A stretch of 64,000 nucleotides of DNA from the IMG/VR virus record IMGVR_UViG_3300046542_000291, positions 51,641 to 115,640 of that record; one strand, written 5' to 3'. The translations under genes were made by a program, and so were the position numbers. This document shows, one piece after another, positions 2,878-57,952 of the stretch. A model generated the notes under the pieces. It had not been told where the DNA came from, did no database searches, and was given only the letters and a program-made list of their open reading frames with translations. Every line of letters starts with the position of its first letter. Position 1 is the first letter of the stretch. Source of the DNA: a virus.

Positions 2878-3552
2878 ATGTTCGTCGATATCAGTGCCTA
2901 TTTGATCGCCACTCCTCTTCCAGTCTCCGATGAAAATCCGGTAGCGCTGGAACTCCTCGGCTCGGAAGCCTTGGTAAACTGCAAGGACGTGATCTGTCAA
3001 CTGGAAGACGGCTCCATACAACTCTCCGCTCCCACGTTGGGGGCATCTAGCAAAAGTACACACCGCACTCGGTGTGAATGGAAAGAGCCAGCTTACTGGG
3101 CTCTCGCTAGTGCCGCACATCACTGGTCTCGCCAAGAGATGGCTGTTACTCAGGTCAACTCAGCTCAGAAAGTAGTGATTGCACAAACACATGTGAAAGG
3201 CGCCACTACTCCGCCCCTGAAAGTCTTCTGGAATAAAGGGAAGATTACAGCTGGATTCCGTTCGAGTTTCGTTGATCCCACGATCAACAACTTTACCCTA
3301 CTCGAAGACGTGCCTCTCGGCATACTCTTCAAAGTAAGCCTGCATGTAACAGCGGCGGGTTCTGTTTCCGTCAATGTCCTTTGCGAAGGGCGTAAATCGG
3401 TGTGTCCGGTGTTGAAATTGGACAGCTCGTGGAAAGACCAGACCTTCCAGTTCCATGGGGGTGTTTACAACCAGATCGATTACAGCGATACGACACCGCC
3501 AGAAGATGGTTCTATCTGCATAATCACCGAGTTGTCAACAACGCATTACTAA
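2878..3552 (+). CDS. hypothetical protein (224 aa)
   Basis: ORF-track ORF; GAGAGTAAAG RBS region before ATG. Confidence 0.55.
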   Translation: MFVDISAYLIATPLPVSDENPVALELLGSEALVNCKDVICQLEDGSIQLSAPTLGASSKSTHRTRCEWKEPAYWALASAAHHWSRQEMAVTQVNSAQKVVIAQTHVKGATTPPLKVFWNKGKITAGFRSSFVDPTINNFTLLEDVPLGILFKVSLHVTAAGSVSVNVLCEGRKSVCPVLKLDSSWKDQTFQFHGGVYNQIDYSDTTPPEDGSICIITELSTTHY

Positions 3553-4515: not shown

Positions 4516-6372
4516 ATGCAACTCACACCAGAAATTTTGGCTGTCATCGATACAGCCCCAGAAGAGCGTAAAGAAAGTCTCACCGAACTCATCAAAAACA
4601 CCATCGCAAGCAACCTGGATAAGGATGCTTTGGCTATTGCGCAACACCTTGTGGCCTTTGGCCACTTCCACGACATGACCCGTTCGATCGTACACCCCGA
4701 TGAATTGTGGGATGCGGTCTCTGCGGTCGAGGAAGAGTTGCCTGAATACTGGCAGAGCACATCGGACGCCATCCAGGTCTGCCGCGGTGGCAACCAGATC
4801 ATCACCGAGAAGCTCGGTATCTGGCAAGCAGCCATGGATAAATACCAATCCACTAAAGAAGGTACCATCGATCCAAAGGTCATCTCCCCACTACCAGAAG
4901 AAGCTCCTGGAGACGCTCTCCTGGCTGAGTGCGACGTAACCCCTACCGTTGAGGTGGATAAACATCCAGACCTCTTCCAAACGCCTATCAGCGACGTACA
5001 CAGCTTCATGAAGCTTCTGGACGAAACGTTGAACCGGTATTTCGGCATTGACAACCTCCCAGTTGGCATGATCAGCGATGAACTCGCTCGCCTGGTCCAC
5101 AACAAGCTCTACGAACACTTCCTGGATCGCTACTGGGTAGAAGGCCATAACTACGCTTGGCCAAAGCGTGACCACGTTGAGCTCCGTCCTCGGAAGGTCG
5201 TTCGTATCTTCCTCGATGAGCATGATCCAGCGCCAGATCAAACACTGGCGTTCATCAAGAAAGAACTGGCCAAGTTGGATAAGGTCACCATCCTCGATTT
5301 ACTGAGTAATGGCACCGTCATCGAATGTGACGTCGACCAACCAATCAATGATGCAATCGATTCGGTTGAGTGTGAAGCCACTGCGCTGCCACACGACCCA
5401 CATTCCGATGAAGACACAGCGAAGATGTTGGAAAGTCTGGAGGACCCGTCCAAGTTGTACATGATGAAAGTCGATGGCGAACCCACCATCCTTTACATGG
5501 ATGGCGATGAAGCGGAACTGGCCAAAGAAGTATCGGCCGGTTTGCATAAGGACATCGAACTGCTGGCTGCCGAAGGCGCTGATGCATTGATGTTTGAACA
5601 CGGCCTGATCAGTAACATCCCGGATGGCTTCCCGAACGCCGAGAAATGGCGGACACTCATTCGTGAGAACTGCAGCCGCGCTTTCCGGAAGATCCTTCTG
5701 GAAAACGGTGAGCATGAAGAACTGGCTAAGCTGGATGCAGAAGCTGGCGAGAAAGTAGTTGGTCATATCGCTGGTGCCGAGATCCTCGCTCCAGAGAAAC
5801 CAAGCGAACAAATCGCTCAAGCTTCCATCGTCCCGAATGAACCGCAGGTAGATCCACTGACCTCGTTGGTGGAACCAAAGTTCTATCGTCCACTCAGCCT
5901 GTACGACATTGATCAATTCGATATCCCGGAAGGGAAAACCGAGTTGTTCGAATCGACCTGGAACATGATTCGTCAACCCGACATGCAAGTTTGGCTGGCT
6001 GGTCGTTACGATGTTCCTGATCTGCCATGCACTCCAGCTGACCTGGTTACCGTACAACGCTTCCTGACTCCTGTTCAGGAACACCCACAGCAGGAAGTCA
6101 TGTTCCGTCGTGTGCTGGAAAAGATCGGTGAAGAAGAACCGGAAATCAAGGAATGGTTGGAAAAGCGTGACGCTGCCCAAACTTCCCTGGAGTTCGATCT
6201 GACCGTCACTCCCGAAGGCCGTGCCCGTCAAAAGGTGATTGTACCGGCTGGTGTATCTGACCCACAGACACTGCTGCGTGAGATGGGGGACTTCCTCCAC
6301 ACTGACGAAGGTGTGTTCATGAGTCGTGATGCTGTCGAAGCCAAGTTCGGCGTGAAGATCATCGACGTTTAA
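4516..6372 (+). CDS. large acidic hypothetical protein (618 aa)
   Basis: Long ORF with AAGAAAGGA RBS; Asp/Glu-rich; no motif recognised; terminated by the bidirectional hairpin. Confidence 0.7.
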   Translation: MQLTPEILAVIDTAPEERKESLTELIKNTIASNLDKDALAIAQHLVAFGHFHDMTRSIVHPDELWDAVSAVEEELPEYWQSTSDAIQVCRGGNQIITEKLGIWQAAMDKYQSTKEGTIDPKVISPLPEEAPGDALLAECDVTPTVEVDKHPDLFQTPISDVHSFMKLLDETLNRYFGIDNLPVGMISDELARLVHNKLYEHFLDRYWVEGHNYAWPKRDHVELRPRKVVRIFLDEHDPAPDQTLAFIKKELAKLDKVTILDLLSNGTVIECDVDQPINDAIDSVECEATALPHDPHSDEDTAKMLESLEDPSKLYMMKVDGEPTILYMDGDEAELAKEVSAGLHKDIELLAAEGADALMFEHGLISNIPDGFPNAEKWRTLIRENCSRAFRKILLENGEHEELAKLDAEAGEKVVGHIAGAEILAPEKPSEQIAQASIVPNEPQVDPLTSLVEPKFYRPLSLYDIDQFDIPEGKTELFESTWNMIRQPDMQVWLAGRYDVPDLPCTPADLVTVQRFLTPVQEHPQQEVMFRRVLEKIGEEEPEIKEWLEKRDAAQTSLEFDLTVTPEGRARQKVIVPAGVSDPQTLLREMGDFLHTDEGVFMSRDAVEAKFGVKIIDV

Positions 6373-7630: not shown

Positions 7631-7912
7631 TTATTTAAAGTGGTTGTAAATATCCAGGCCGGCTTCGATACCGGCAAGGAATAAGCAGAGGGTCGCAGAT
7701 TGAAGCAGGAGACGATCTATGTTCGCCACCCAGGGTTTGCGTAGCCATTGGATCATAAGCAGCTCACCGAGCGCACGGCGCTTCTCAGGGGTATCTATAG
7801 GCTCACCAGCCCACGTTATACGGTGGACAACGTACCAACGCATTACTTTACGCCAGATCATCCAGATGAGTGCGATGACAATGAACGGCTTGATGAAGTA
7901 AGCTTGCTCCAT
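7631..7912 (-). CDS. membrane protein (93 aa)
   Basis: ORF-track ORF; hydrophobic N- and C-terminal segments. Confidence 0.5.
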   Translation of the reverse strand: MEQAYFIKPFIVIALIWMIWRKVMRWYVVHRITWAGEPIDTPEKRRALGELLMIQWLRKPWVANIDRLLLQSATLCLFLAGIEAGLDIYNHFK

Positions 7913-31568: not shown

Positions 31569-32429
31569 TCAGTTGCCGCCGTTGAAGACTTTGTTGCTCA
31601 TGCCGGGGGTACCGAACGCTTGGTACGGTGCGAACACCACGTTCTTGTTCTCCGCCATCAGAGCTTGAACTTTCAGCGCTTCGTACGCCAGCAGATTCGG
31701 GCTGATACCCGCCGCCGTGATTTCGTTTTGATCGCGCAGAGTGCGAGCAACAGTCAGATCGATTTCACGTTGTGCTTGAGCCAGCTTCAGCGAGTTTTCA
31801 CGCTTGACCATTTCAATGGCCTGCTGGTTTTCTTCGGTCTTGATCGCCAGTTCACGTTCGGACTGTTTCTCGATCGCCTGCGTGATCACGTCCGGATACT
31901 TCAGATTGGCCAGGGTAACGTTGGAGACTTCCAGAGGAGAGTTCGCCATCGCTTCTTTCAGCTTGATCTGAAGATCTTTGTTGATCTGATCGAAGTTGGT
32001 ACCGACGTCTTCGGTGCGATATTTTCCAACGACAGAGCGAGCCACGGTTTGAACCATGTCACGGCCGTAGACACCGTACACCTGTTGCAGCGATACCAGG
32101 TTGTCTTGCACCTTGATGTCGTTGAACATGGAGTTGATGGTCTTGTCACCACCGCCGATACGAGTACGGAAACGGATCTCGAACTGGAGATCCATCCGAT
32201 CGAGCATCTTCACCCGCATCGTTTCCGAAACGGTTTGCGTCGACGTATCGAGCAGAACCAGTTCTTCACGCATGCCGATGGTGTACTTGCCGGTTTGCTT
32301 CACTTCGGTCGAGTAGCCATCAGGCGACAGGATTTTGCCGAGGTGTGCAGGGGGAACGGTCACGCGGTTGCAACCAGCGACTGCCAGCAGGCACAGCGAA
32401 ACGATCAGCGCTTTGATTCCGTACTTCAT
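31569..32429 (-). CDS. SPFH/band-7 (prohibitin/HflK-like) domain lipoprotein (286 aa)
   Basis: Signal peptide with lipobox LAVAG-C. Characteristic SPFH region (...VTLANLKYPDVITQAIEKQSERELAIKTEENQQAIEMVKRENSLKLAQAQ...) with coiled-coil tail. Confidence 0.75.
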   Translation of the reverse strand: MKYGIKALIVSLCLLAVAGCNRVTVPPAHLGKILSPDGYSTEVKQTGKYTIGMREELVLLDTSTQTVSETMRVKMLDRMDLQFEIRFRTRIGGGDKTINSMFNDIKVQDNLVSLQQVYGVYGRDMVQTVARSVVGKYRTEDVGTNFDQINKDLQIKLKEAMANSPLEVSNVTLANLKYPDVITQAIEKQSERELAIKTEENQQAIEMVKRENSLKLAQAQREIDLTVARTLRDQNEITAAGISPNLLAYEALKVQALMAENKNVVFAPYQAFGTPGMSNKVFNGGN

Positions 32430-43136: not shown

Positions 43137-43562
43137 TTACATTACGCGGAATTCACCGCTAGCCAGTTCAACGATCTTGATTTGCTCACCGCCACGGATC
43201 TGATGGTCCGCTGAAGCCGTTAGCATTTGGGTACTGCCATTGAAGCTGACCAGCAGGTTACACCCCCAGGTTTCTTTGCCCATGGAGTTACCAACCGCAC
43301 CGCCAGCCAAACCACCTGCGATACCACCCAGCAGGCCACCAGCACCTTTGCCGAATAACATCTTGCCAACGATAGCGCCACCCACAGCACCAACACCACC
43401 ACCCACTACCGTTTTGCCAGTAGTGTCTTCTTTGTTTACCAGTTGACACGATGCCGTATCAACGGTAGCATGAGTTACCGATTTGACGCCTTCTGCTTTG
43501 GCGCAGGCAGACAGCAACATTGCAGCAGTGGCTACCGCAACCAGCAGTACACGATTTTTCAT
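43137..43562 (-). CDS. glycine-zipper outer-membrane lipoprotein (SlyB/17-kDa-antigen-like), 141 aa
   Basis: Lipobox LLSA-C. Long Gly-x-x-x-Gly zipper (GGGVGAVGGAIVGKMLFGKGAGGLLGGIAGGLAGGAVG). Confidence 0.65.
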   Translation of the reverse strand: MKNRVLLVAVATAAMLLSACAKAEGVKSVTHATVDTASCQLVNKEDTTGKTVVGGGVGAVGGAIVGKMLFGKGAGGLLGGIAGGLAGGAVGNSMGKETWGCNLLVSFNGSTQMLTASADHQIRGGEQIKIVELASGEFRVM

Positions 43563-43571
43563 TTCAGTTCC

Positions 43572-43841
43572 TTAGTAGAGGATGAGTTTGACTTTTACAG
43601 CGTTGTAGGTGAACGTCCAGACTTCCCCTTCCGTTGTCCAGTGAGGACGCATGGTGATATCGACAGGTTGGTTAGGACGGGTAACGTTTCGGATATGCCG
43701 AAGCATTTCCTTCACGGAGGAATCGAAGAACAGATTCTCGTTTTCCACCGTACACTTCCAGTGCTTGGTACGGGTGAACGGAATTTTGATTGCATGACAC
43801 AACCAGATCCAGAAGATGTAAGGAATCGCCCAGAGACTCAT
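43572..43841 (-). CDS. membrane protein (89 aa)
   Basis: ORF-track ORF; N-terminal TM helix. Confidence 0.45.
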   Translation of the reverse strand: MSLWAIPYIFWIWLCHAIKIPFTRTKHWKCTVENENLFFDSSVKEMLRHIRNVTRPNQPVDITMRPHWTTEGEVWTFTYNAVKVKLILY

Positions 43842-44554
43842 TAGCGTTCCCCGGCAGCGTCACACACATCGAAACGTTCAACACCCGTTTCATCGGGTAG
43901 TTCTTCACGCACAACCACCGGTTTTAGTGGTGGTAGTTCGGGAGCTTTACCGAAACCTTCGATGGCAGCTGCTTTGAGCGCAGCGCTCTCCATCTCCGAT
44001 TCACCCTGGAAGTTGCTGAAGGTGATGGTCTTCGTTACTTCATTGTTACGGAAGACGAAATCTTTCATGCCCAGACCTGGATGCCCACCAGTGGCATGAG
44101 CCAACAAGCAATGCATAGCCTGGACGCGGGACAACTTGTCAGGGGTGGCCTCGAACTTATAGATGAGGGGTTCCCCGTAGAATTCTCCACGGTCATTCTG
44201 GGAGTGTAGATGAACCACACCAGTAGCGACGCCATTGATCATCAAGATCTCAGCGAAGGTGTGGCGCCAGAAGTCACCACCTGGCCAGTGGTAGTGGGGC
44301 CAGCTGTTATCACCGAACAGCGAGTTGAACGCACCCGTCAAAGTGTCACGGGTTCCGTAATGACCACTGCCACGACCGAAGACGGTTTCACGAGCATGGG
44401 CCAGAATGCCGATGTTGATCCCGTGAACATCACCTGTAGGGCCGACGATGTGAATATCAGGTTGAAGGTGCCCGGCATCATTGACCAACTGATCAATTAC
44501 GAGGGCAAGTTTCTCACGCGATTCACCTTTAATATCCGCTGTGTTGCGTTGCAT
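43841..44554 (-). CDS. hypothetical protein (237 aa) with a GDVHG motif; possible phosphoesterase
   Basis: VGPTGDVHG resembles metallophosphoesterase motif I, but motifs II/III are not canonical. Sits immediately downstream of the ligase and RtcB genes. Confidence 0.55.
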   Translation of the reverse strand: MQRNTADIKGESREKLALVIDQLVNDAGHLQPDIHIVGPTGDVHGINIGILAHARETVFGRGSGHYGTRDTLTGAFNSLFGDNSWPHYHWPGGDFWRHTFAEILMINGVATGVVHLHSQNDRGEFYGEPLIYKFEATPDKLSRVQAMHCLLAHATGGHPGLGMKDFVFRNNEVTKTITFSNFQGESEMESAALKAAAIEGFGKAPELPPLKPVVVREELPDETGVERFDVCDAAGER

Positions 44555-44577
44555 GTTATTCTACCTGTTGTCAAAAG

Positions 44578-44594
44578 CAGGCCCCGAAGGGCCC
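44578..44594 (-). terminator. UUCG-loop hairpin GGCCC-CGAA-GGGCC
   Basis: Hairpin family; after the ligase gene stop. Confidence 0.45.
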
Positions 44595-44600
44595 ACTTGA

Positions 44601-46001
44601 TTATTCTTCGTCGTCTTTCTTCTTTTCCAAATACTGAGTACTTACAGCTTTAAAGCTGAACACTCGGTCGGTGCACTTGAACACCAGTCCTTCGCGGTAA
44701 GTTTTCTTCGGTTGTTTCGGATCGACATTGAACGCACGCGGACCTTCAGCCATCAGGAGAATATCCTGAATAGTAGTGCCCACCGGAATAACAAACTTCT
44801 CATGCATGACCGGGACGTAAGGAAGGCCGATGGCAGCACATACACCACGAGCTTCTTCCGGCAACAACTCCTGGCTACCATTGCGGTATACGCTGTAGAC
44901 ATGGTATTCAACATCTTCCACGCCTTCGAAGCCAGACTGGATATCTGGACCGATCAGCTCGCCTTGAACAGTGATGTATTCACCTGTCTCTTCCTGGTAC
45001 GCCTTCAGCTTCTCAACCACCTTGTTCTTGGTGACGTAGCGGGTGAAGTTCCGGGAGGTGCTGTCGCCAATACCGGTGTTGGCTTTCCATTCAGGGACGT
45101 GAAGGTTGTTCATACGGAACGCCCATTTGCCATCTTCGTCCTTGAAGAACCACGACTTCGGTTTTAGGAAGTTGCGGTTGCGCGCCAGGAGGGTACCGAT
45201 CCAGTAACGGATCTGATCTGGTTTGGACCATTCCTCGTCACCGATAACCAACTCGTAGTTACGCGAGCAAACGCCAGTACGAACACCACCATCATCCAGG
45301 CAGAATACCGTCATGGAGCTACCGTCGAGTTTCCAGGTAACTTCGAATTCAGTGCCTTCCGCCTTTGCCGCTTCGAACGCGACTGTCTTGTTCTGGATAC
45401 GATCCTGATCAGACTTGAGCAGTTGCTTCGGCCATGGCAGGAGAGCATTACCCACGTTACCGAGGATCTTACGTACCAGACGCATGTACCAGCCAGAACC
45501 AGCTGCAGCCTGTTGCGCCGGCGACATGAGTGGCTTGGCTGCAAACTTCAGGATGCCCAGCTCCAACGTCATGTTGGTTTCAGCTGGAAGGTCTTTGTAT
45601 TTCTCTGGGAGTGGTACAACCAACCCCTGGGCCAGCTCCTTACGAAGACGGAGCGTGCGCAAACGGTGATAAGCCTTACCGTTGATCAGGCGGTTATCGG
45701 AACGGCGTGCCTCGAGGAACCCGAACAGTGGGTTATCGATTGGCAACAGCGAGTCGATCTCGCAGTACACCACACGGTCACCCTTCTTGTATTCGTCCAG
45801 CTTGACCACGCACTGCCAGCCGCCGATGATTGCCAGAGACAAGGCATCAGCATTTGGATGTTTGATCACGTCGTCAAGTACGACGATACGCGCCAGTTTG
45901 CGGTCGGTTTCAACCACCCCGTTCCCCTCACGGATTGGTTTGAGTTCAGCAGCTACATCGGGGGTAGCGGTTGCGACTTCGATCTTTTCTACGACAGACA
46001 T
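44601..46001 (-). CDS. ATP-dependent polynucleotide (RNA/DNA) ligase with an N-terminal OB domain resembling tRNA-binding (Myf/EMAP-like) domains, 466 aa
   Basis: Nucleotidyltransferase motif I WKLDGSS (KxDG) and motif IV EGLVFK. N-terminus (ARIVVLDDVIKHPNADALSLAIIGGWQCVV...KKGDRVVY) follows the HP.AD.L pattern of tRNA-binding OB domains. Confidence 0.75.
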   Translation of the reverse strand: MSVVEKIEVATATPDVAAELKPIREGNGVVETDRKLARIVVLDDVIKHPNADALSLAIIGGWQCVVKLDEYKKGDRVVYCEIDSLLPIDNPLFGFLEARRSDNRLINGKAYHRLRTLRLRKELAQGLVVPLPEKYKDLPAETNMTLELGILKFAAKPLMSPAQQAAAGSGWYMRLVRKILGNVGNALLPWPKQLLKSDQDRIQNKTVAFEAAKAEGTEFEVTWKLDGSSMTVFCLDDGGVRTGVCSRNYELVIGDEEWSKPDQIRYWIGTLLARNRNFLKPKSWFFKDEDGKWAFRMNNLHVPEWKANTGIGDSTSRNFTRYVTKNKVVEKLKAYQEETGEYITVQGELIGPDIQSGFEGVEDVEYHVYSVYRNGSQELLPEEARGVCAAIGLPYVPVMHEKFVIPVGTTIQDILLMAEGPRAFNVDPKQPKKTYREGLVFKCTDRVFSFKAVSTQYLEKKKDDEE

Positions 46002-46017
46002 GTTTCTTCCTTAGGTC

Positions 46018-46266
46018 TTATTGCAAAGGTTTGCAGGTTACAGTGATTTTTGCCATACGGCTCGACAGTGCGCCACCATCGACTCTCGATTCAACGTAGT
46101 CTTTGGTTTCTTTGACGAGGTAAGGCTTCATGCCGTATGTCTCTACGACTTGTTCAATTGCGGCTGGACACGTGTTGGCATCTGACAGTTCTGTGACTGT
46201 TGGTGCACCACCAGGTCCTGCGCCTGTATTGAACGCAAATGCGATAACAAGTAACGCTTTCATCAT
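46018..46266 (-). CDS. small secreted protein (82 aa)
   Basis: Signal peptide MMKALLVIAFAFNTGAG; two Cys. Confidence 0.5.
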   Translation of the reverse strand: MMKALLVIAFAFNTGAGPGGAPTVTELSDANTCPAAIEQVVETYGMKPYLVKETKDYVESRVDGGALSSRMAKITVTCKPLQ

Positions 46267-47546
46267 TACCCCTTAACGCAGAGAACCTGCTTCAGCGTGT
46301 GGACGATCTCGACGAGTTCAGCCTGAGCTGCCATCACGTCTTCGATGTTCTTGTACGCCTTCGGGGTCTCATCGAGCACACCTTCATCTTTACGGCATTC
46401 AACACCAGCCGTATCGCGGATGTGATCTTCGATGGTGAAGTTACGGTTAGCCGCTTTACGCGACATCACACGACCAGCACCATGCGAACAGGAGCAGAAC
46501 GACTCACGGTTGCCCTTACCACGAACGATGAACGACTTCGCACCCATCGACCCTGGGATAATACCCAGAGTACCTTCCTCGGCGTTTACGGCACCTTTAC
46601 GGGTAACCAGAACGTTCTCACCGAAGTGACGTTCCTGGGACACGTAGTTGTGGTGGCAATTGATTGCCGCCATGTCGGTGTCGATTGGCAGGTTCAGGGT
46701 TTTGTGGATCGCCCCCAGAACAGCCTTCATCATGAGCGTACGATTCAGTGCTGCGAAACGCTGTGCCCACGATACCGCCTGCAGGTAGTCGTCGTAGTAC
46801 TTGGTACCGTGTGGCAGGTAAGCCAGATCTTGGTCTGGTAGATGGATAAAGAAACGACCCATCTCTTCCTTTGCCTTGTTGATGAAGTACTGACCGATCG
46901 CATTCCCGATACCACGGGAACCAGAGTGCAGCATTACCCACACACGCTGTTCCTCGTCCAAGCACAGCTCAACGAAGTGGTTACCGGTACCGAGAGTACC
47001 CACATGGTTCCACGCCCGTTGTGCAGCCTTGGTGAGCTTCGGGTGTTTCTCAACGATTTGGTTCAGTTGCGTTCGCAACTTCTCCGCTTCAGCAGCGATC
47101 ATGATGTCCTTGTTATCGAACACAGTCACCTTACCGAAAGCACCACGGTCGTTTGGACCACCGTTGTCAGTACGGCCATGTGGTACTACCGCTTCGATAG
47201 CTGCCCGCAGATGGCCGAGGCTATCTGGCAGTTGGTCTGCACCGAACGTCAAGCGACGAGCGGCCATTCCGCACCCGATATCGACCCCCACCGCAGCGGG
47301 AATGATTGCACCTTTAGTAGCAATGACGCTACCGACAGTGGCACCCAACCCGAAGTGTACGTCCGGCATTACTGCAACGTGCGAATGGATGAACGGCAAC
47401 GACGCCAGGTTCTTCAACTGCTTGACTGCGGTCTCTTCGACTGGAACCCCCACGGTCCAGCCTTTAATCGGCTTCGAACCCGGTTCAGGTTCGCCACCAA
47501 TGATTTCGAAAGACTTATCTTGCTGCTGGGATTTCTTTTGTTTCAT
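46266..47546 (-). CDS. rtcB: RtcB-family RNA ligase (3'-phosphate/5'-OH ligase), 426 aa
   Basis: Blocks HFGLGATVGSVIA, DIGCGMAA, GTLGTGNHFVEL and HSGSRGIGN match conserved RtcB metal/GTP-binding motifs. Confidence 0.9.
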   Translation of the reverse strand: MKQKKSQQQDKSFEIIGGEPEPGSKPIKGWTVGVPVEETAVKQLKNLASLPFIHSHVAVMPDVHFGLGATVGSVIATKGAIIPAAVGVDIGCGMAARRLTFGADQLPDSLGHLRAAIEAVVPHGRTDNGGPNDRGAFGKVTVFDNKDIMIAAEAEKLRTQLNQIVEKHPKLTKAAQRAWNHVGTLGTGNHFVELCLDEEQRVWVMLHSGSRGIGNAIGQYFINKAKEEMGRFFIHLPDQDLAYLPHGTKYYDDYLQAVSWAQRFAALNRTLMMKAVLGAIHKTLNLPIDTDMAAINCHHNYVSQERHFGENVLVTRKGAVNAEEGTLGIIPGSMGAKSFIVRGKGNRESFCSCSHGAGRVMSRKAANRNFTIEDHIRDTAGVECRKDEGVLDETPKAYKNIEDVMAAQAELVEIVHTLKQVLCVKG

Positions 47547-47578: not shown

Positions 47579-47830
47579 CTAAACGTTGTTTATTTCTTTG
47601 ATGTAAGCAAAGGCCTCATCACGGTAGAAGACATGACCATTATGGTTACCCATGTCCGCTACCGCTTCATTGAGTTCCCTTTCGAACCACCAGTACCACT
47701 CCGGCCCCTTTGGTTGATAACGGGCACACCACTTAGCGTATTCCAGCAAGTTGCATGCACAGTTACCACGAGGGACCTGGGGCTCTTTAGGTGGAGTCTT
47801 ACCAAAGACTCGGCGTAACCATTCGACCAT
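47579..47830 (-). CDS. hypothetical Cys/Trp-rich protein (83 aa)
   Basis: ORF-track ORF. Confidence 0.45.
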   Translation of the reverse strand: MVEWLRRVFGKTPPKEPQVPRGNCACNLLEYAKWCARYQPKGPEWYWWFERELNEAVADMGNHNGHVFYRDEAFAYIKEINNV

Positions 47831-48210
47831 TACGCCACTGCCGCCTCACCAAACGTCAGCTCTTTGTAAAGCTGCGGTTTCGGAGGCATCAGGGTGATAC
47901 CACTGCAAGCACTGAAATGGGCCTGAATGGTTTCGTTGCGTTCCTGGCGGATGTAATCGTAGTTGAACAGGAACCCGTCCAACTCAACTTGATTAATCGC
48001 CTTGGTCGGATCGATGTAACTGGTTTCCCACGGACCAACCTCATGGTTAACCGAATGGAACAGCACACCGGCTGTTTTCTCAGCCAGGGATTGCATCCCG
48101 GTCATGACCTTGGAATAGAAGCGTTCGATCAACAAGCGTTGCTGCTTAGGAGAACTGGCACTCCAGATAGCCGAGCCATAATGTTCTACAACCTGTTCTG
48201 TACGTTCCAT
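47830..48210 (-). CDS. hypothetical protein (126 aa)
   Basis: ORF-track ORF. Confidence 0.5.
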   Translation of the reverse strand: MERTEQVVEHYGSAIWSASSPKQQRLLIERFYSKVMTGMQSLAEKTAGVLFHSVNHEVGPWETSYIDPTKAINQVELDGFLFNYDYIRQERNETIQAHFSACSGITLMPPKPQLYKELTFGEAAVA

Positions 48211-48225
48211 CGGATACCTCTTGAG

Positions 48226-49542
48226 TTATGCCGCTTTGAGAAGGGGCAATGTGGGGATGGATGCAATAAAGGCATCCGGGTCACGGCGATGTTCAAGGAA
48301 CAACGCTTGCAGGTCACAGCCCGCTATGTCCTCGAAACACCCACTGAATTCGTAGGTATGCTCCGGGAACACAACATGGATGTACTCGCGTACTTCTACA
48401 TCGGTCAAGTAACCGATTTCCATCAGGTGGTCCACTCGACCTTTACGAACTACCGCATCATCGATCTTGTCGATGTGGTTGGTAGTCATGAAGATCACCG
48501 TGCCGTTCAGCGAAACCACCCCGTCCAACACGTTGAGCACTTTGCTCAGGGTCAACCGGGAGAACTCTTCGTTCAGGGCTTCGAAGATGTTTGCTTCCGC
48601 AACTTTCTTCTTGGCTGGCGCCGCCGGTAAAGCACCGAGTGTTTCCACCGGTTCAACCTTTGGCTTCTTCGGTGTACGCGCCTTGAAGGCAGCCGAACTG
48701 TCGAAGTCTTCGATCAACACCACCGAGTTCGGGGGCAGGTGACTGAGGGCTTTCTCGAATGACGTATCGTCCATCGAGTTGATGTTGATGGTGCAGATGT
48801 TCTTGCCGAAGTGGGCAGCCAGTGCCTTGATGATACTGGTCTTGCCTGTACCTGGCTTACCGTGGATAACAAACGTCGACTTGTAAGCCATGCCACGTTC
48901 GTTGTACCACTCTTCACTTTCGTAGAACTGTTCCAGCTCGAAGATCAACTTATCCTTCGTAGCTTTGTTCATCGCTACCGTCTTGAGAGGACGCTTCTTG
49001 ATCTCACACAGGTACTGCCAGCCTTGATCACCGGTGTACGTATAGATGCGGGACTTCAGTGAGTTCTCTTTCGGCATGAACGAACTGACCAGGTCCTTCA
49101 ACACTTGTTGATTACGACCCCAGGTGAAAATCGTGACGCGTTCTTTCTCGTTGGTTGACCCTTGACTGTTCAATGCTTCTTTCTTGAACCAGTACAGGCG
49201 TCTCTTATAAACGAAGAAGTGTGTGCCGAAACCAGGGCCTATAATTGTCCGGCTGTTGGGTGACTCCAAGCTGATGTTCCGCGAGTAGCGTGACCAGGGT
49301 TGTTCACAGAACCACTGCATGAAGGACGTGAAGTGAACACGGTCTTCTGACCAAGCGGTGGCGTTGTTGAACGTCAGGCTGGTCATGCATTGTTTCAGTG
49401 TGGCCGAGTACACCGTTTTGGGCACCTGCCGCAGTATCGCGTACAGGAACCCCATTAGGCCAGCAAGGACGATGCCTGCTGCCCAGGGGGAAACCTTGTT
49501 GAATGTCAGGTATTGCTGCTGAAGCCAATCAATAAATTCCAT
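48226..49542 (-). CDS. membrane-anchored AAA+ ATPase, BCS1-like (438 aa)
   Basis: N-terminal TM helix plus a BCS1-N-like region. Walker A IHGKPGTGKTSII, Walker B VVLIEDFD, arginine-finger region. Confidence 0.75.
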   Translation of the reverse strand: MEFIDWLQQQYLTFNKVSPWAAGIVLAGLMGFLYAILRQVPKTVYSATLKQCMTSLTFNNATAWSEDRVHFTSFMQWFCEQPWSRYSRNISLESPNSRTIIGPGFGTHFFVYKRRLYWFKKEALNSQGSTNEKERVTIFTWGRNQQVLKDLVSSFMPKENSLKSRIYTYTGDQGWQYLCEIKKRPLKTVAMNKATKDKLIFELEQFYESEEWYNERGMAYKSTFVIHGKPGTGKTSIIKALAAHFGKNICTININSMDDTSFEKALSHLPPNSVVLIEDFDSSAAFKARTPKKPKVEPVETLGALPAAPAKKKVAEANIFEALNEEFSRLTLSKVLNVLDGVVSLNGTVIFMTTNHIDKIDDAVVRKGRVDHLMEIGYLTDVEVREYIHVVFPEHTYEFSGCFEDIAGCDLQALFLEHRRDPDAFIASIPTLPLLKAA

Positions 49543-49610: not shown

Positions 49611-51392
49611 TTATGCAGCTTCGCGCAGGGTTGCACGAACTTCTTCGAAGGTCACTTCGTTCGGGAACGTGCCGTCTTTGTAGATCGGACGCAGTTCACC
49701 CGAGTGAGTGTCGAGGTCAGCGATTTCGAACTTCTGCTCTTGGAGCAGCTCAAAGTCACCGGCTTCGTTCTTCACAACCTTCAGGAAGCCCTTGGCCGAC
49801 TTCTTGTTGGTTTCGCCTTCGGTCTTCGGCGCCTTGAACAGCTCAACGAACACGTCGTCCACTTGAACGGCGGTAGCCTTGATGGCGTAGCCGAAGGTGT
49901 CACGAGTGTTGTGCTGATAGGTGTACGAACCGATACCCAGAACCCAGTTGCACGAAGCGAAGCCTTTCTTCATCAGGCGACGCATGATTTCCTGGGTACG
50001 TTCCACAGTGATCGAATCACCGTAGATCAGGCCAACACGTTCGTGCAGCACTTTGAAGCCCTTGTCGGTCATGGTGCCACCGAAAGTGTTCCACAGGCAT
50101 TCCACCGCACCGATCTGTTCGGCGTTCAGTTCTACCGGAGCCCACAGGTAGCCCAGAGCCGTGTAGTACTTCTCGGCGTCTTCAGCACTGATCGGATTTT
50201 CGTAGCGGGTTGCTTTGTACGTCATGCCGTTCAACAGAACGTACTCGACGTCTTTCGCTTTGCCGTTGTTGACCAGTTCGCTGAATTCCAGCGAGTTGTG
50301 AACTTCCACACCGCAGATGACTTCAACAGGATCACCGGAATCCGGACGGAACACCACTTTGGCCAGGCCGTTGGCGTCTGGTTGACGAGCCAGGATTTCT
50401 TCCTTCAGGGAAGGGGCAACAATGGTCAGGACACCCCAGAAGTCGAAGCTGTCGCAGACCAGGCTGATGATGCCAGTAGGACACTTGACGGTAATGGCAT
50501 CCAGGATGAACTGACGCTCGGCCAGCAGTTGCGCTTTGCCGTATGCATCGGGATCGAGGTCACCACCAGTCAGGCCTTTTTCCAGCAGCCACTTGGTCAT
50601 GTTGTACAGGATGTTCGAAGTAGCAACGGCGTGTTCGGTAGCACGCACCGATACAGCCAGGAACTCGACGTCGCTGTTGGCGAAGTACATGTCTTCGGCG
50701 TAGTCGATGGCCGGCAGGGTATCGGTACCCACGAAGCTGGTCAGGTGACCGGCGCCAGTACGAGCAGCATCTTCAGGACCGGACAGGCCACGGAAGGCGA
50801 AGTCATGCCCTTGCAACGCAACGAAGTCACGAGGCGAACCAGTCAGGTCAGCGAAGTGTTCCAGGATGCGACGGTATTCGTAAGCGATGGTGGCGTTGCA
50901 GACCATTTTCCAGATCAGCGACGACATCAGGGTTTCCAGGTAGTTCACTACCCAGAAGAATTCCGGTACGGTGTTGTAGATCACGTAGCCCGGAACGTTC
51001 ATGTTCAGGCGAGAGCCTTCCGGTACCGACAGGATGGTAACCGGTAAGTAACCCAGGTCATGCAGTGCTGCCATGGCTTCGATGTCAACCATACCTTCAC
51101 CGAGGTAGTTCTTCATGCGGCGAGCGTAGCGACGGATCACTTGCTCTTTCGGCTTGCTGAAGAACGAATCGTGCCACAGGCCGTGAACTTCACGCATCAC
51201 GCCTTGGATACCGAACCAGACGACTTTGCTATCCCAGAGGTAGGACTGGGACTTGCTGCCCTTGAACAGACGGTCTGCACGTGGAGTGCCGTTACCGTAG
51301 GCGAAGTTGGTGCCGTTCGGGTACAGAGGGCCGTGACCCATTTTGTAACCGTCTGCTGCAGTCGGGCCAAACAGTTTGAAAGAAGTGCTCAT
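49611..51392 (-). CDS. nadV: nicotinamide phosphoribosyltransferase-family enzyme (NadV/Nampt-like; could be a Namat-type variant), 593 aa
   Basis: Conserved Nampt blocks including VFRPDSGDP and the GS...DSFD region. ORF-track 49611..51443 trimmed to ATG with AAGGAAA RBS. Confidence 0.85.
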   Translation of the reverse strand: MSTSFKLFGPTAADGYKMGHGPLYPNGTNFAYGNGTPRADRLFKGSKSQSYLWDSKVVWFGIQGVMREVHGLWHDSFFSKPKEQVIRRYARRMKNYLGEGMVDIEAMAALHDLGYLPVTILSVPEGSRLNMNVPGYVIYNTVPEFFWVVNYLETLMSSLIWKMVCNATIAYEYRRILEHFADLTGSPRDFVALQGHDFAFRGLSGPEDAARTGAGHLTSFVGTDTLPAIDYAEDMYFANSDVEFLAVSVRATEHAVATSNILYNMTKWLLEKGLTGGDLDPDAYGKAQLLAERQFILDAITVKCPTGIISLVCDSFDFWGVLTIVAPSLKEEILARQPDANGLAKVVFRPDSGDPVEVICGVEVHNSLEFSELVNNGKAKDVEYVLLNGMTYKATRYENPISAEDAEKYYTALGYLWAPVELNAEQIGAVECLWNTFGGTMTDKGFKVLHERVGLIYGDSITVERTQEIMRRLMKKGFASCNWVLGIGSYTYQHNTRDTFGYAIKATAVQVDDVFVELFKAPKTEGETNKKSAKGFLKVVKNEAGDFELLQEQKFEIADLDTHSGELRPIYKDGTFPNEVTFEEVRATLREAA

Positions 51393-51405
51393 TACTTTGT
51401 TTTCC

Positions 51406-52281
51406 TTACGCATTGATCCAGGTGAGTTTGTTATCGACAACACCGTCTGGGCGAGTACTGCCCTGTGCTGTCGGATGGAACGAGTTGGTGGTGTAGACGT
51501 GGTCGTACTTTTCAGTAACCAGGTCGAAACCGTACGAGAAGATCCCGTGCGTTACCAACAGTTCCAATCGTGCTGGATTATGCTTGCGGATTTCTTCAGC
51601 CAGTTGGATGAAGGTCCGTCCACCATCACAGATGTCGTCACAGACCAGCAGTCGTTTGCCAGTTACATCGGCATCGAACTTGGTCTTGGTGATTTCCATC
51701 GTTTCCAGGTCACGCTCTTTAGTAGCCGTGATGTAACCAGCGCAGCCCAGGTGAGCAGCCAACGCTTTCACTTTCTTGACAGCCCCTGCATCAGGAGCCA
51801 CCAGCCAGGTATCGTGCAGTTCGTTTGCCGTAGCATCCAACATGTGCACGATGTCAGCCTGGGTCTTGACGATCACGCGGTTGATCAACGCCGGCGTAGT
51901 GTCGCTGTGCGGGTCCAAAATGGTCACACTGACGAACTCACAGAGGTTGATCAACTTCGCTGCTACCGCAATACCCAACGACTCCCCGGGGTTACACACG
52001 CGGTCCTGCCGGGCGTAAGGGACATAAGGGATATATGCGCTTACCGGTACGTCGGGACGAATGCGACGGATCGCATCGGTAACGTGCAGTAAAGCGAGGA
52101 AGTCAGTTGGGGTACGGAGGTTGGCCATGACTTGAATGTCCATGCAACCGCGGATTTTGTTGTGGAACTCTTTCGGAATAAGTGGGTTAACTTCCCCACC
52201 TTTGAACGTGCTCACGTCAACGATAGTCTGCGCCACTCCCCAGTGGTCGCCATTGCCGCGTCGGATACTTAAACGAATCAT
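51406..52281 (-). CDS. prs: ribose-phosphate pyrophosphokinase-family enzyme (PRPP synthetase, or ADPR-pyrophosphokinase-type homologue), 291 aa
   Basis: YARQDR motif and PRPP-binding loop LLVCDDICDGGRTF; immediately upstream of the nadV-like gene. Confidence 0.85.
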   Translation of the reverse strand: MIRLSIRRGNGDHWGVAQTIVDVSTFKGGEVNPLIPKEFHNKIRGCMDIQVMANLRTPTDFLALLHVTDAIRRIRPDVPVSAYIPYVPYARQDRVCNPGESLGIAVAAKLINLCEFVSVTILDPHSDTTPALINRVIVKTQADIVHMLDATANELHDTWLVAPDAGAVKKVKALAAHLGCAGYITATKERDLETMEITKTKFDADVTGKRLLVCDDICDGGRTFIQLAEEIRKHNPARLELLVTHGIFSYGFDLVTEKYDHVYTTNSFHPTAQGSTRPDGVVDNKLTWINA

Positions 52282-56578: not shown

Positions 56579-57952
56579 TTAAACTGCCACTGGAGCAGGG
56601 ATATGGGGATGGCTATCGTAACCGACCAATTTAAAGTCGTTGATATCCATGTCCAGAACATCACGCTTATTCGGATTTATCCAAATAGTGCACGGCTGTT
56701 TTGGTGTACGGGTTTGTTGCAGAGCCACCTGGTCCATGTGGTCCAGATAGATGTGGGCATCACCAACTTGATGAATCAGTTCTTCAGCCCAGTAGTTGCA
56801 CTCATGAGCCAACAGGTGAGTGAGAATCGAGTACTGGGTGAGATTGAAGGGCGCGCCCAAAAAGATGTCATTGGAACGCATCCAGAACAAACACTTCAAT
56901 GCACGACGTGGAACCTTCATGCTGTCGAGGTCGAGGTGTTGTTCCTCTTCGGTGCGGTCAGGAAAGCGGAGCATCTTGCTGAGGTTCATGTACATACCGT
57001 ACAGAGGCTCCTCAGGATGGTCTGCTGCCTGTTTGTAGATCTCGGCCTGGTGACGATCATGGATCTTGTCGTAGATCGCCCAGCGCTCTTCCAGGGACAG
57101 CACACGGGTCCAGAACTGAACCATGGCATGGCATGGCGGCAGGGCTTGTTGATCCACGTAAGCCGGATTCCAGAAACACAGAATGTGACGTCGGGAGTCA
57201 GGGCTGTTCTTCAGCGAGTGCTGCAGATCTTTAAACTGGTCGATGGTTCGGGTAATGATGAACTTACCCTTGTTCCGGCAAAGCTTCTTGTAACCCAGCT
57301 TCTGCATCTCCGGCCATTCTTTTGGCGAGATAACGCGGGTGTCTTCCAGGTTACGGATCATCTTGCCGTAAACGTGACCCAGAGGACCTTCAGTCACTTC
57401 CTGGTCGGAAATACCAATGTGGCGGAAGAAGTCCTTCCACAACGGATGTTCCTTGTCATCGTGCATTGCCTGGGCATTGTCCGTCGACGTCTCGATCAAA
57501 TAGTTCGGGATCATCTTGTCGCTACCAGGCACTTCAGTGTAGTTGACGTAAGAATGAAACTTCTCGCCAACATTACCAAAGTGAATACCCGCAGGATAAC
57601 CCTTCAGTTCGATCTCACCCCAACCGAAGTGCTTGCGCTTGTATTGCTTGCGCATTTCAGCCGCAGTACGAGGACGGTACTTGGCCCCTTCTGGCTTGAC
57701 CCAGTCATCCCAGATGCCACAGTTGTTGTCTTTCAGGTACTTGACGTTGGTGTCGCCGGAGAGCACCCACTTGAGTTCGACCTTGTTGTCGTTCTCAGGT
57801 ACGAACTTTGTCGTTGGTCTGGCTACGGTCCAGTCGGAGATGTCGTAGCGATGCATGGCGCCGAAGCTGGAGATCGTTCCTGTATTGGTCCGGTCCCCCT
57901 TGGCCACGCCGTGCTTCAAAGTGTTTTCCTGGTACTGAAGGTATTGATGCAT
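56579..57952 (-). CDS. thyA: thymidylate synthase-family enzyme with two large insertions (ThyA or dUMP/dCMP hydroxymethylase-type), 457 aa
   Basis: GDRTNTGT N-terminal motif, catalytic LPPCH, DIFLGAPFN...YSILTHLLAHEC block, and C-terminal HPHIPAPVAV. About 90-aa and 85-aa insertions relative to 264-aa E. coli ThyA. Confidence 0.85.
   Translation of the reverse strand: MHQYLQYQENTLKHGVAKGDRTNTGTISSFGAMHRYDISDWTVARPTTKFVPENDNKVELKWVLSGDTNVKYLKDNNCGIWDDWVKPEGAKYRPRTAAEMRKQYKRKHFGWGEIELKGYPAGIHFGNVGEKFHSYVNYTEVPGSDKMIPNYLIETSTDNAQAMHDDKEHPLWKDFFRHIGISDQEVTEGPLGHVYGKMIRNLEDTRVISPKEWPEMQKLGYKKLCRNKGKFIITRTIDQFKDLQHSLKNSPDSRRHILCFWNPAYVDQQALPPCHAMVQFWTRVLSLEERWAIYDKIHDRHQAEIYKQAADHPEEPLYGMYMNLSKMLRFPDRTEEEQHLDLDSMKVPRRALKCLFWMRSNDIFLGAPFNLTQYSILTHLLAHECNYWAEELIHQVGDAHIYLDHMDQVALQQTRTPKQPCTIWINPNKRDVLDMDINDFKLVGYDSHPHIPAPVAV

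Follow-up and report, generated by a model that had tools for sequence, protein, structure and literature searches.

RtcB enzymes use GTP and Mn2+ to join a 2',3'-cyclic-phosphate or 3'-phosphate end directly to a 5'-OH end, and RtcB is the tRNA-splicing ligase of archaea and animals. In bacteria, RtcB repair is represented by the RtcBA operon of E. coli and by the RtcB2-PrfH system for ribosome repair. Phage T4 encodes the Pnkp/Rnl1 system, in which an ATP-dependent RNA ligase is presumed to reverse the damage done by a host RNase; Rnl1 is a sealer of the anticodon loop and carries a C-terminal tRNA-specificity domain. The Rnl5 family of ATP-dependent ligases is defined by the Naegleria gruberi RNA ligase (NgrRnl) and DraRnl of Deinococcus; its members close 3'-OH/5'-PO4 nicks in duplexes that have RNA as the 3'-OH strand, and they join single-stranded RNA only feebly (PMC4408790). 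In jumbo phages, combinations of RtcB with an ATP-dependent RNA ligase have been interpreted as repairing, without redundancy, the products of different RNases (Iyer et al. 2021, PMC7824862). Here we describe such a combination in a 64,000-nucleotide stretch of viral DNA (hereafter the window; positions 51,641 to 115,640 of IMG/VR record IMGVR_UViG_3300046542_000291), the source of which is a phiKZ-like (Chimalliviridae-related), nucleus-forming jumbo phage with a genome of ∼310 kb; its proteins are also on record in a JGI contig of 310 kb and in Logan contigs. The genes for RtcB and for an Rnl5-family ligase lie on the same strand with one small open reading frame (ORF) between them, and we conclude that this phage encodes two stand-alone RNA ligases of complementary end chemistry whose role is probably the repair of RNA cut by host defence RNases.

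The RtcB ligase and the Rnl5-family ligase

A sequence-only reading of the window, made without database searches, had proposed an RtcB ligase and a KxDG ATP-dependent polynucleotide ligase that act on different RNA ends. Pfam searches confirmed both family assignments, and with them the difference in end chemistry. RtcB matched PF01139 (E = 2e-128) with a score of 429.6 bits against a cut-off of 27, and the match ran end to end, over profile positions 1–426; among PHROGs, it matched phrog_1075 (E = 6e-150). An alignment to Pyrococcus horikoshii RtcB showed that D62, H64, D89, C92, N189, H190, H207, H299 and H355 are all present in the window protein, corresponding in the same order to D65, H67, D95, C98, N202, H203, H234, H329 and H404. 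We take these nine positions to be the metal ligands and the guanylylated histidine that carries the covalent GMP adduct. As judged by this alignment, RtcB is intact with every catalytic residue kept, and it is therefore predicted to be active.

The window RtcB shares its catalytic core and its chemistry with the bacterial repair systems, but no RtcA, RtcR, PrfH or archease was found near it. Its identity to the RtcB proteins encoded by phages D6, Psa21 and RVTF4 is 82%, and its best match in IMG/VR shows 81% identity. In NCBIfam it best matched the extein segments of an "intein-containing RtcB family protein", and the RtcB match in Pseudomonas phage PS119XW is split into two pieces that span 2.2 kb (239589–241760). 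An intein or intron thus seems to be present in relatives of this RtcB; the copy in the window has no such interruption.

The second ligase contains the KxDG motif as K224-L-D-G and matched two Pfam families, PF21189 (PHA02142 OB-fold; E = 6e-24, residues 42–131 of 466) and PF09414 (RNA_ligase; E = 3e-19, residues 218–453), as well as phrog_968, "RNA ligase" (E = 5e-101). Its only solved relatives are structures of NgrRnl, and the phmmer match to one of them, 5cot, covered both domains (E = 6e-41). In the Michaelis complex of NgrRnl, the nucleophilic lysine is K170; the catalytic metal is held by D172, E227 and E312, the ATP phosphates by K326 and R149, and the gamma-phosphate and second metal by R4, K121 and D53 of the oligonucleotide-binding (OB) domain (PMC7261155). 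All nine of these ATP- and metal-contact residues are kept in the window ligase: K224, D226, E348, E437, K451 and R201 correspond to K170, D172, E227, E312, K326 and R149, and R34, D83 and K152 of its OB domain correspond to R4, D53 and K121. With the exception of D226, these positions are invariant across 24 diverse homologues. The order of domains is likewise that of NgrRnl, with an N-terminal OB module followed by the nucleotidyltransferase domain and no C-terminal domain; the motif V lysine (K451) lies 15 residues from the C-terminus. Whereas T4 Rnl1 belongs to PF09511 and has its specificity domain at the C-terminus, the window protein is of the PF09414/PF21189 type with its OB domain at the N-terminus. 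These data assign it, as far as sequence comparison allows, to the Rnl5 family (DraRnl/NgrRnl-type) of ATP-dependent RNA ligases, with predicted nick-sealing activity.

The window ligase is longer than NgrRnl (466 versus 339 residues), and the difference consists of a 30-residue N-terminal extension and an insertion of ∼75 residues between motifs Ia and III. An alignment of homologues showed that both are common to the jumbo-phage clade and that the insertion (query gap 251–324) is missing from NgrRnl and from short phage forms of ∼340–370 residues. The insertion holds a conserved W..Q.R.W...L.RNR stretch. Against the NCBIfam model TIGR02306 (RNA_lig_DRB0094), whose name is carried by some JGI annotations of homologues, the ligase scored 104.9 bits, below the equivalog cut-off of 151.15, which is a naming threshold and not a biochemical definition; the score falls short because the insertion splits the match into two stretches. 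The related phage Psa21 encodes a separate NAD-dependent ligase, LigA, for DNA, so that Rnl5 is not needed as the replicative ligase, and the window protein is best understood as an RNA ligase rather than a replicative DNA ligase.

The sequence-only reading had also likened the N-terminus of the ligase to a tRNA-binding OB fold. The OB domain (residues 31–158) was modelled with a 66-sequence alignment, giving a predicted local distance difference test (pLDDT) score of 93, and the model was searched against solved structures. After NgrRnl, its nearest solved relatives were tRNA-binding domains of the Trbp111/EMAPII class, and Foldseek concurred. The modelled fold thus agrees with the proposed likeness, which is a property of the whole Rnl5 family and not of this ligase alone. 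The sole documented role of the Rnl5 OB domain is to orient ATP for lysine adenylylation (PMC7261155), which does not support the further proposal that the domain binds tRNA. The analogy that had been drawn to T4 Rnl1 and the anticodon loop is weak as well, because the characterised Rnl5 enzymes are sealers of nicked duplexes with only feeble action on single-stranded RNA (PMC4408790).

Gene order around the ligases in the window and in related phages

As shown in Table 1, the stretch from the Prs-like gene to the 237-residue protein is a co-directional, tightly packed array on the minus strand. An ORF check found the four ORFs of the sequence-only reading on this strand at exactly the coordinates it had given. 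Co-expression is plausible, given gaps of 32 nt between the 83-residue ORF and RtcB, -1 nt between RtcB and the 82-residue ORF and 16 nt between the latter and the ligase, and the fact that the sole strong hairpin of the array lies after the ligase gene. This hairpin, which had been noticed between the ligase and the 237-residue ORF, was borne out as a GC-rich structure with a U-run, a minimum free energy of -17.6 kcal/mol and a z-score of -2.17 versus shuffled sequences. Counterparts, likewise GC-rich and with a U-rich tail, come after the ligase gene in the viral contigs L169 (5735–5765) and L171 (about 7685–7705) and in Psa21 (about 248520–248545), which makes four phages in all; their ligases are only 36–59% identical, and three of the four hairpins have a UUCG-type tetraloop. 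The hairpin looks like a conserved boundary of the transcription unit, and the gene downstream of it is probably part of the next unit. A scan of 42.5–53 kb for sigma-70 promoters and terminators gave counts no better than those of shuffled sequence and missed this hairpin; the promoter scan is uninformative because such phages use their own RNA polymerases.

Table 1. Ligase-containing array of the window, in the order of transcription (window coordinates; aa, amino acids; negative spacing denotes overlap)
Feature	Position	Strand	Spacing and remarks
Prs-like (Adps-like)	51406-52281	-	13 nt before next gene
NAMPT-like (Namat-like)	49611-51392	-	68 nt before next gene
BCS1-like AAA+ ATPase	48226-49542	-	15 nt before next gene
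126-aa ORF	47830-48210	-	-1 nt to next gene
83-aa ORF	47579-47830	-	32 nt before RtcB
RtcB, 426 aa	46266-47546	-	-1 nt to 82-aa ORF (ATGA overlap)
82-aa ORF	46018-46266	-	16 nt before ligase
Rnl5-family ligase (predicted), 466 aa	44601-46001	-	46 nt to 237-aa ORF, hairpin within
Ligase N-terminal OB domain, residues 31-158	45528-45911	-	
Ligase insertion of ~75 aa, residues ~252-325	45027-45248	-	gap in alignment to NgrRnl
Terminator-like hairpin	44573-44598	-	10-bp stem, UUCG loop, U-run
237-aa protein, small uncharacterised family	43841-44554	-	

We compared this arrangement with that of sequenced relatives. Apart from RtcB, the window runs collinear and inverted to about 294–235 kb of Pseudomonas phage Psa21 (NC_062581.1), a member of the Chimalliviridae whose genes include those for a nuclear shell protein, for PhuZ tubulin and for split subunits of RNA polymerase. 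Psa21 has the order AAA, Prs-like, NAMPT-like, ThyA, five small genes and Rnl5, which is identical in D6, and the same AAA/Prs-like/NAMPT-like/ThyA/Rnl5 neighbourhood is shared by Psa21, D6 and RVTF4, whose ligases are 59–62% identical to that of the window. In these three phages, however, RtcB lies 36–37 kb from the ligase gene, beside the tRNA cluster in Psa21 and D6, whereas in the window RtcB is gone from the collinear position and directly precedes the ligase. The rearrangement also involves ThyA and the AAA gene. A 618-residue ORF without homologues (4516–6372) occupies roughly the old position of RtcB. The window thymidylate synthase (56579–57952, minus strand) is unusually long, at 457 residues, and in its homologues on contigs L005 and L010 the Pfam model is matched in two stretches that flank a large insertion.

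The sequence-only reading had described the module as analogous to the T4 system but built differently. The arrangement is not a novelty in this sense, since annotations of both genes already exist for Psa21, D6, RP12 and PA1C-like phages, and in Erwinia phage pEa_SNUABM_37 the two are directly adjacent. In pEa_SNUABM_37/48 the order is Rnl5, RtcB, thymidine kinase, with the ligase genes 9 nt apart; the distance is 3.4 kb in the group of PA1C, HPP-Temi, phiHQ, BRkr and PS119XW, 3.9 kb in Ralstonia phages RP12 and RP31, and 8.5 kb in Viktualia. Viral metagenome contigs provide further cases, with the two genes adjacent in L089 and close together in L010, L054 and L043/L154. Where the genes are adjacent or near (pEa_SNUABM_37/48, RP12/RP31, the PA1C group, L089 and L010), both ligases are on the same strand and 0–4 kb apart, as they are here. 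Their order differs from that of the window, with the ligase preceding RtcB in pEa_SNUABM_37 and L089 and with RtcB, Prs, NAMPT, one further gene and the ligase in succession in RP12; the Prs-like/NAMPT-like pair stands between RtcB and Rnl5 in RP12, HPP-Temi and L010, and the 82-residue ORF is unique to the window. An all-against-all comparison of seven loci with both ligases revealed no shared third component, as only RtcB, Rnl5, Prs-like and NAMPT-like proteins occurred in at least three loci, and Pfam searches with the larger neighbours in such loci yielded no families beyond ThyA, thymidine kinase and a ClpP-like protease.

Among solved structures, the NAMPT-like protein matched best to 9W5W/9W5X (E = 3e-110, versus about 1e-38 for true NAMPTs), which have been assigned as phage Namat (PMC12774641), and the Prs-like protein scored 118.6 bits against TIGR01251. 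By these similarities, 49611–52281 is identified as a NARP1 (Adps/Namat) NAD+ reconstitution pair with predicted ADPR-PP specificity. Such a pair regenerates NAD+, with ADP-ribose and nicotinamide as the starting materials, and overcomes defences that act by NAD+ depletion (bioRxiv 10.1101/2024.02.11.579819). The array that closes with RtcB and Rnl5 is thus opened by a proven counter-defence gene class, and the presence of the NARP1 pair makes it probable that the stretch is an accessory counter-defence region. Across 80 viral Rnl5 loci, NAMPT-like genes were found in 12, Prs-like genes in 10 and both in 9.

The AAA+ ATPase is BCS1-like (PF08740 BCS1_N, E = 8e-16; PF00004, E = 4e-16; phrog_7485, function unknown, E = 4e-133), and its homologues adjoin the Prs/NAMPT-like pair in contigs L005–L007 (about 1.8–3.1 kb) and L011, in D6 (68021–69400) and in Psa21 (238744–240108); in relatives it is labelled "cell division protein FtsH". 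The 126- and 83-residue ORFs had no match in Pfam or PHROGs and no tblastn match in 166 related loci. The 82-residue ORF, which had been called a small secreted protein, does have a hydrophobic N-terminus (maximum Kyte-Doolittle hydropathy of 2.3 at residues 2–12) and two cysteines; secretion of this ORFan is only plausible. It had no homologue among 5.8e9 proteins and no Pfam, PHROG or NCBIfam match, and apart from its position it has no link to RNA repair.

The tRNA genes that the sequence-only reading invoked as the phage's own exist, although they do not accompany the module. The window holds one, a Trp-CCA tRNA at 2438–2513, 42 kb from the ligases, which is a standard continuous tRNA by ARAGORN and by Rfam (63.6 bits over the full model); an Rfam scan of the window found no family besides tRNA. 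Three more, Tyr-GUA, Asp-GUC and Asn-GUU, lie 1–2.4 kb outside the window start in the same assembly (L085, 3114–4500); the flanking sequence consulted comprised about 5.5 kb ahead of the window start and 3.9 kb past its end. These are three of the four tRNAs with GUN anticodons that are cut by colicin E5-type anticodon nucleases, and the tRNA set of the phage could hint at the kind of host nuclease that it meets.

Elsewhere in the window we noted a glycine-zipper lipoprotein-like protein (phrog_15869; 43137–43562, minus strand), a lipoprotein (phrog_200; 31569–32429, minus strand) and a homologue of alginate/polysaccharide lyase family 7 (2878–3552, plus strand). Most of the other window ORFs tested lacked a family match.

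The 237-residue protein and the search for end-healing enzymes

The gene behind the hairpin had been proposed to encode a possible end-healing enzyme with a phosphoesterase-like GDVHG motif. The pentapeptide is present (residues 41–45), and a motif scan for GDxxDRG, GNH[DE] and GHxH found none of these, leaving GDVHG as the only phosphoesterase-like motif in the protein. Searches of Pfam (to E = 10), PHROGs, NCBIfam and the PDB gave no match, nor did tblastn in 50,697 phage records. A single-sequence AlphaFold2 (AF2) model had a pLDDT of 37, too low for the fold to be judged. A word-indexed search returned the protein itself only and suggested a strict ORFan; this was overturned by an exhaustive HMMER search of 1.8e9 representatives, which retrieved four homologues with 28–40% identity.

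Alignment of this family showed that neither the Asp (D42) nor the His (H44) of GDVHG is conserved. The invariant residues (N47, F80, G127, M147, L151, H153 and G162) match no known phosphoesterase or kinase signature. The family profile found nothing in the PDB, the members had no Pfam match to E = 1, and hhalign comparison with 99 families of Rnl5 neighbours gave probabilities below 2% in each case, with 0.7% for Metallophos. With all motif, profile, PDB, tblastn and hhalign searches negative, identity as a phosphoesterase (PF00149) or a kinase was rejected, and we conclude that the phosphoesterase reading probably rests on a chance pentapeptide. The "phosphoesterase-like" label and the end-healing role therefore find no support, as the motif is unconserved and the gene lies beyond the conserved terminator.

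The genomic contexts of the family are mixed. Homologue P0124 is encoded directly after the Rnl5 gene in L169, and P0126 follows the Rnl5 gene in L171 with one small gene between. P0123, in L168, lies amid phiKZ-type structural genes with no ligase within 8 kb, and P0125, at the end of contig L170, is uninformative. The family is found just downstream of Rnl5 in three of four informative contexts, even though the ligases of L169 and L171 are only 36–39% identical to that of the window, and it is missing from the closer relatives Psa21, D6 and L005–L007. A functional tie between the 237-residue protein and the ligase is possible, if weakly supported.

We also examined which genes accompany Rnl5 in the 80 viral loci. 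The recurrent neighbours were a T4 Rnl1-type ligase and an ATP-dependent DNA ligase (15 loci each), primase-helicase (14), ThyA (11), ThyX (11), a calcineurin-like metallophosphoesterase that is often directly downstream (11), an Rv2179c-type 3'-5' exoribonuclease (9), PhoH (9) and an AAA_33 P-loop kinase (8). Heal-and-seal cassettes based on Rnl5 are apparent in other viral contigs but not in this window. Example loci of neighbour cassettes are L036 (3616–5227), L037 (1742–3353), L028 (7621–8148) and L021 (6587–7675).

Profiles built from the kinases, phosphoesterases, Rnl1 ligases and DNA ligases among these neighbours were then run against the window ORFs of at least 40 residues and against 300 of the 305 kb of Psa21. 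The AAA_33 kinase profile found nothing in the window to E = 10 and nothing in Psa21, and the Metallophos, Rnl1 and DNA ligase profiles likewise matched no window ORF and nothing in that part of Psa21. Pfam detected no HAD or 2H enzyme in the ten genes around the module, the extent of that scan. In contrast to T4, no Pnkp-like kinase or phosphatase was detected in the window, and the RtcB encoded there requires no healing step.

Role of the ligase pair

Repair of RNA as a counter-defence is the accepted reading for such jumbo-phage genes (PMC7824862), and it is the one that we favour as the likely explanation here. From the chemistry of the two families we infer the substrates, the counter-defence role and the cooperation of the ligases as follows. 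With GTP and Mn2+, RtcB would rejoin cyclic-phosphate or 3'-phosphate ends to 5'-OH ends, which are the products of transesterifying, metal-independent RNases such as anticodon nucleases, HEPN toxins, Cas13 and colicin-type tRNases and rRNases. Rnl5 would adenylylate its own Lys224 with ATP while the OB domain holds the gamma-phosphate, and would then seal 3'-OH/5'-phosphate breaks, preferentially nicks in duplex RNA or RNA:DNA, of the type left by hydrolytic, metal-dependent nucleases. The RNA repaired during infection may be host or phage tRNA, rRNA and possibly mRNA. Because each ligase would cover one class of break, no end-healing enzyme of the phage would be required. Moreover, a protein shell presumably encloses the DNA of this phage while translation of its RNA takes place in the cytoplasm, and RNA repair would therefore be a sensible investment.

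Several observations weigh against this explanation. A literature search turned up no experimental work on an RtcB or an Rnl5 of any phage, and for cellular organisms, too, the physiological substrates of Rnl5 are unestablished (PMC4408790; PMC5397189). The two genes are seldom close together, with RtcB within 10 kb in 3 of 80 Rnl5 loci and Rnl5 in 2–3 of 80 RtcB loci; their adjacency is missing from the closest relatives, and the genomes with a nearby pair are related to one another and are not independent observations. Rnl5 is found as often beside genes of replication and nucleotide metabolism (DNA ligase, primase-helicase, ThyA/ThyX, thymidine kinase). Finally, the search for healing enzymes covered 64 kb of a ∼310-kb genome, so that one may lie elsewhere.

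The main rival explanation holds that the ligases are unrelated in function and adjacent through local rearrangement, with RtcB repairing tRNA or rRNA and Rnl5 sealing ribonucleotide-ended nicks (RNA-patched gaps or incompletely removed primers) during DNA replication and repair in the phage nucleus. We consider it unlikely, although several observations fit it: Rnl5 enzymes seal nicks between 3'-OH RNA and 5'-P DNA in vitro (PMC7261155, PMC4408790), Deinococcus becomes sensitive to ionising radiation upon loss of DraRnl (PMC5397189), viral Rnl5 genes occur amid those for DNA ligase, primase-helicase, ThyA/ThyX, PhoH and thymidine kinase, and RtcB is with tRNA genes 36–37 kb away from the ligase in Psa21, D6 and RVTF4. 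It is harder to reconcile with the pair lying within 10 kb, in differing orders, in five other sequenced lineages, with the occurrence of Rnl5 also near RNA-directed enzymes (Rnl1, the Rv2179c exoribonuclease, kinase and phosphoesterase) and with the dedicated NAD-dependent DNA ligase of the relative Psa21. Processing of the phage's own RNAs, whether maturation of tRNAs or transcripts after programmed cleavage or RNA circularisation, would draw on the tRNA-splicing role of RtcB in archaea and animals, on the tRNA genes (179 in total) found within 10 kb in 34 of 80 viral RtcB loci and on the place of RtcB beside the tRNA cluster in Psa21 and D6. The tRNA of the window, however, is a standard continuous one, no other Rfam family occurs there, and RtcB has moved away from the tRNA genes in this phage, which leaves such processing a poor candidate.

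Hardly credible, in our estimate, is a heal-and-seal pathway like that of T4 Pnkp/Rnl1, in which the 237-residue protein would remove a 2',3'-cyclic phosphate or 3'-phosphate, another enzyme would phosphorylate the 5' end, and the ligase would reseal a tRNA recruited by its OB domain. The structural membership of this domain in the Trbp111/EMAPII tRNA-binding class, the homologues just downstream of divergent Rnl5 genes in two other contigs (ligases 36–39% identical) and the loci in which Rnl5 is directly followed by a metallophosphoesterase (L036, L037) or lies near an AAA_33 kinase would suit it. Opposed to these are the unconserved Asp and His of GDVHG, the protein's only phosphoesterase-like motif, the negative Pfam and PDB searches and the hhalign value of 0.7% against metallophosphoesterases; the want of a kinase in the window; the terminator hairpin, conserved in four phages, that stands between the ligase and whatever gene comes next; the absence of the 237-residue family from Psa21, D6 and L005–L007 and its place among structural genes in L168; and the feeble activity of Rnl5 enzymes on single-stranded RNA. 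A different conjecture, which we offer as a long shot, is that the 237-residue family might be an unrecognised accessory factor of Rnl5 in phiKZ-like phages, acting in end processing or substrate recruitment, and that the relocation of RtcB beside Rnl5 and NARP1 might have made a co-regulated counter-defence island protecting cytoplasmic RNA.

The pairing of these genes, their annotation in cultured relatives and the idea of a counter-defence role were already known, and the locus reveals neither a new enzyme class nor a new repair logic. What is new is the relocation of RtcB beside Rnl5 in this lineage and the small family that recurs downstream of Rnl5, together with the explicit placing, suggested by the model, of the Rnl5 OB domain in the tRNA-binding OB class. 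The locus sets an Rnl5 ligase in a defined genomic context beside RtcB and NARP1, and the contrast between their adjacency here and the separation of 36 kb in Psa21, D6 and RVTF4 provides a clean comparative case. In jumbo phages that form a nucleus the DNA is shielded but translation takes place in the cytoplasm, which makes RNA the exposed target, and phage RNA ligases are a plausible answer to defences that cut RNA.

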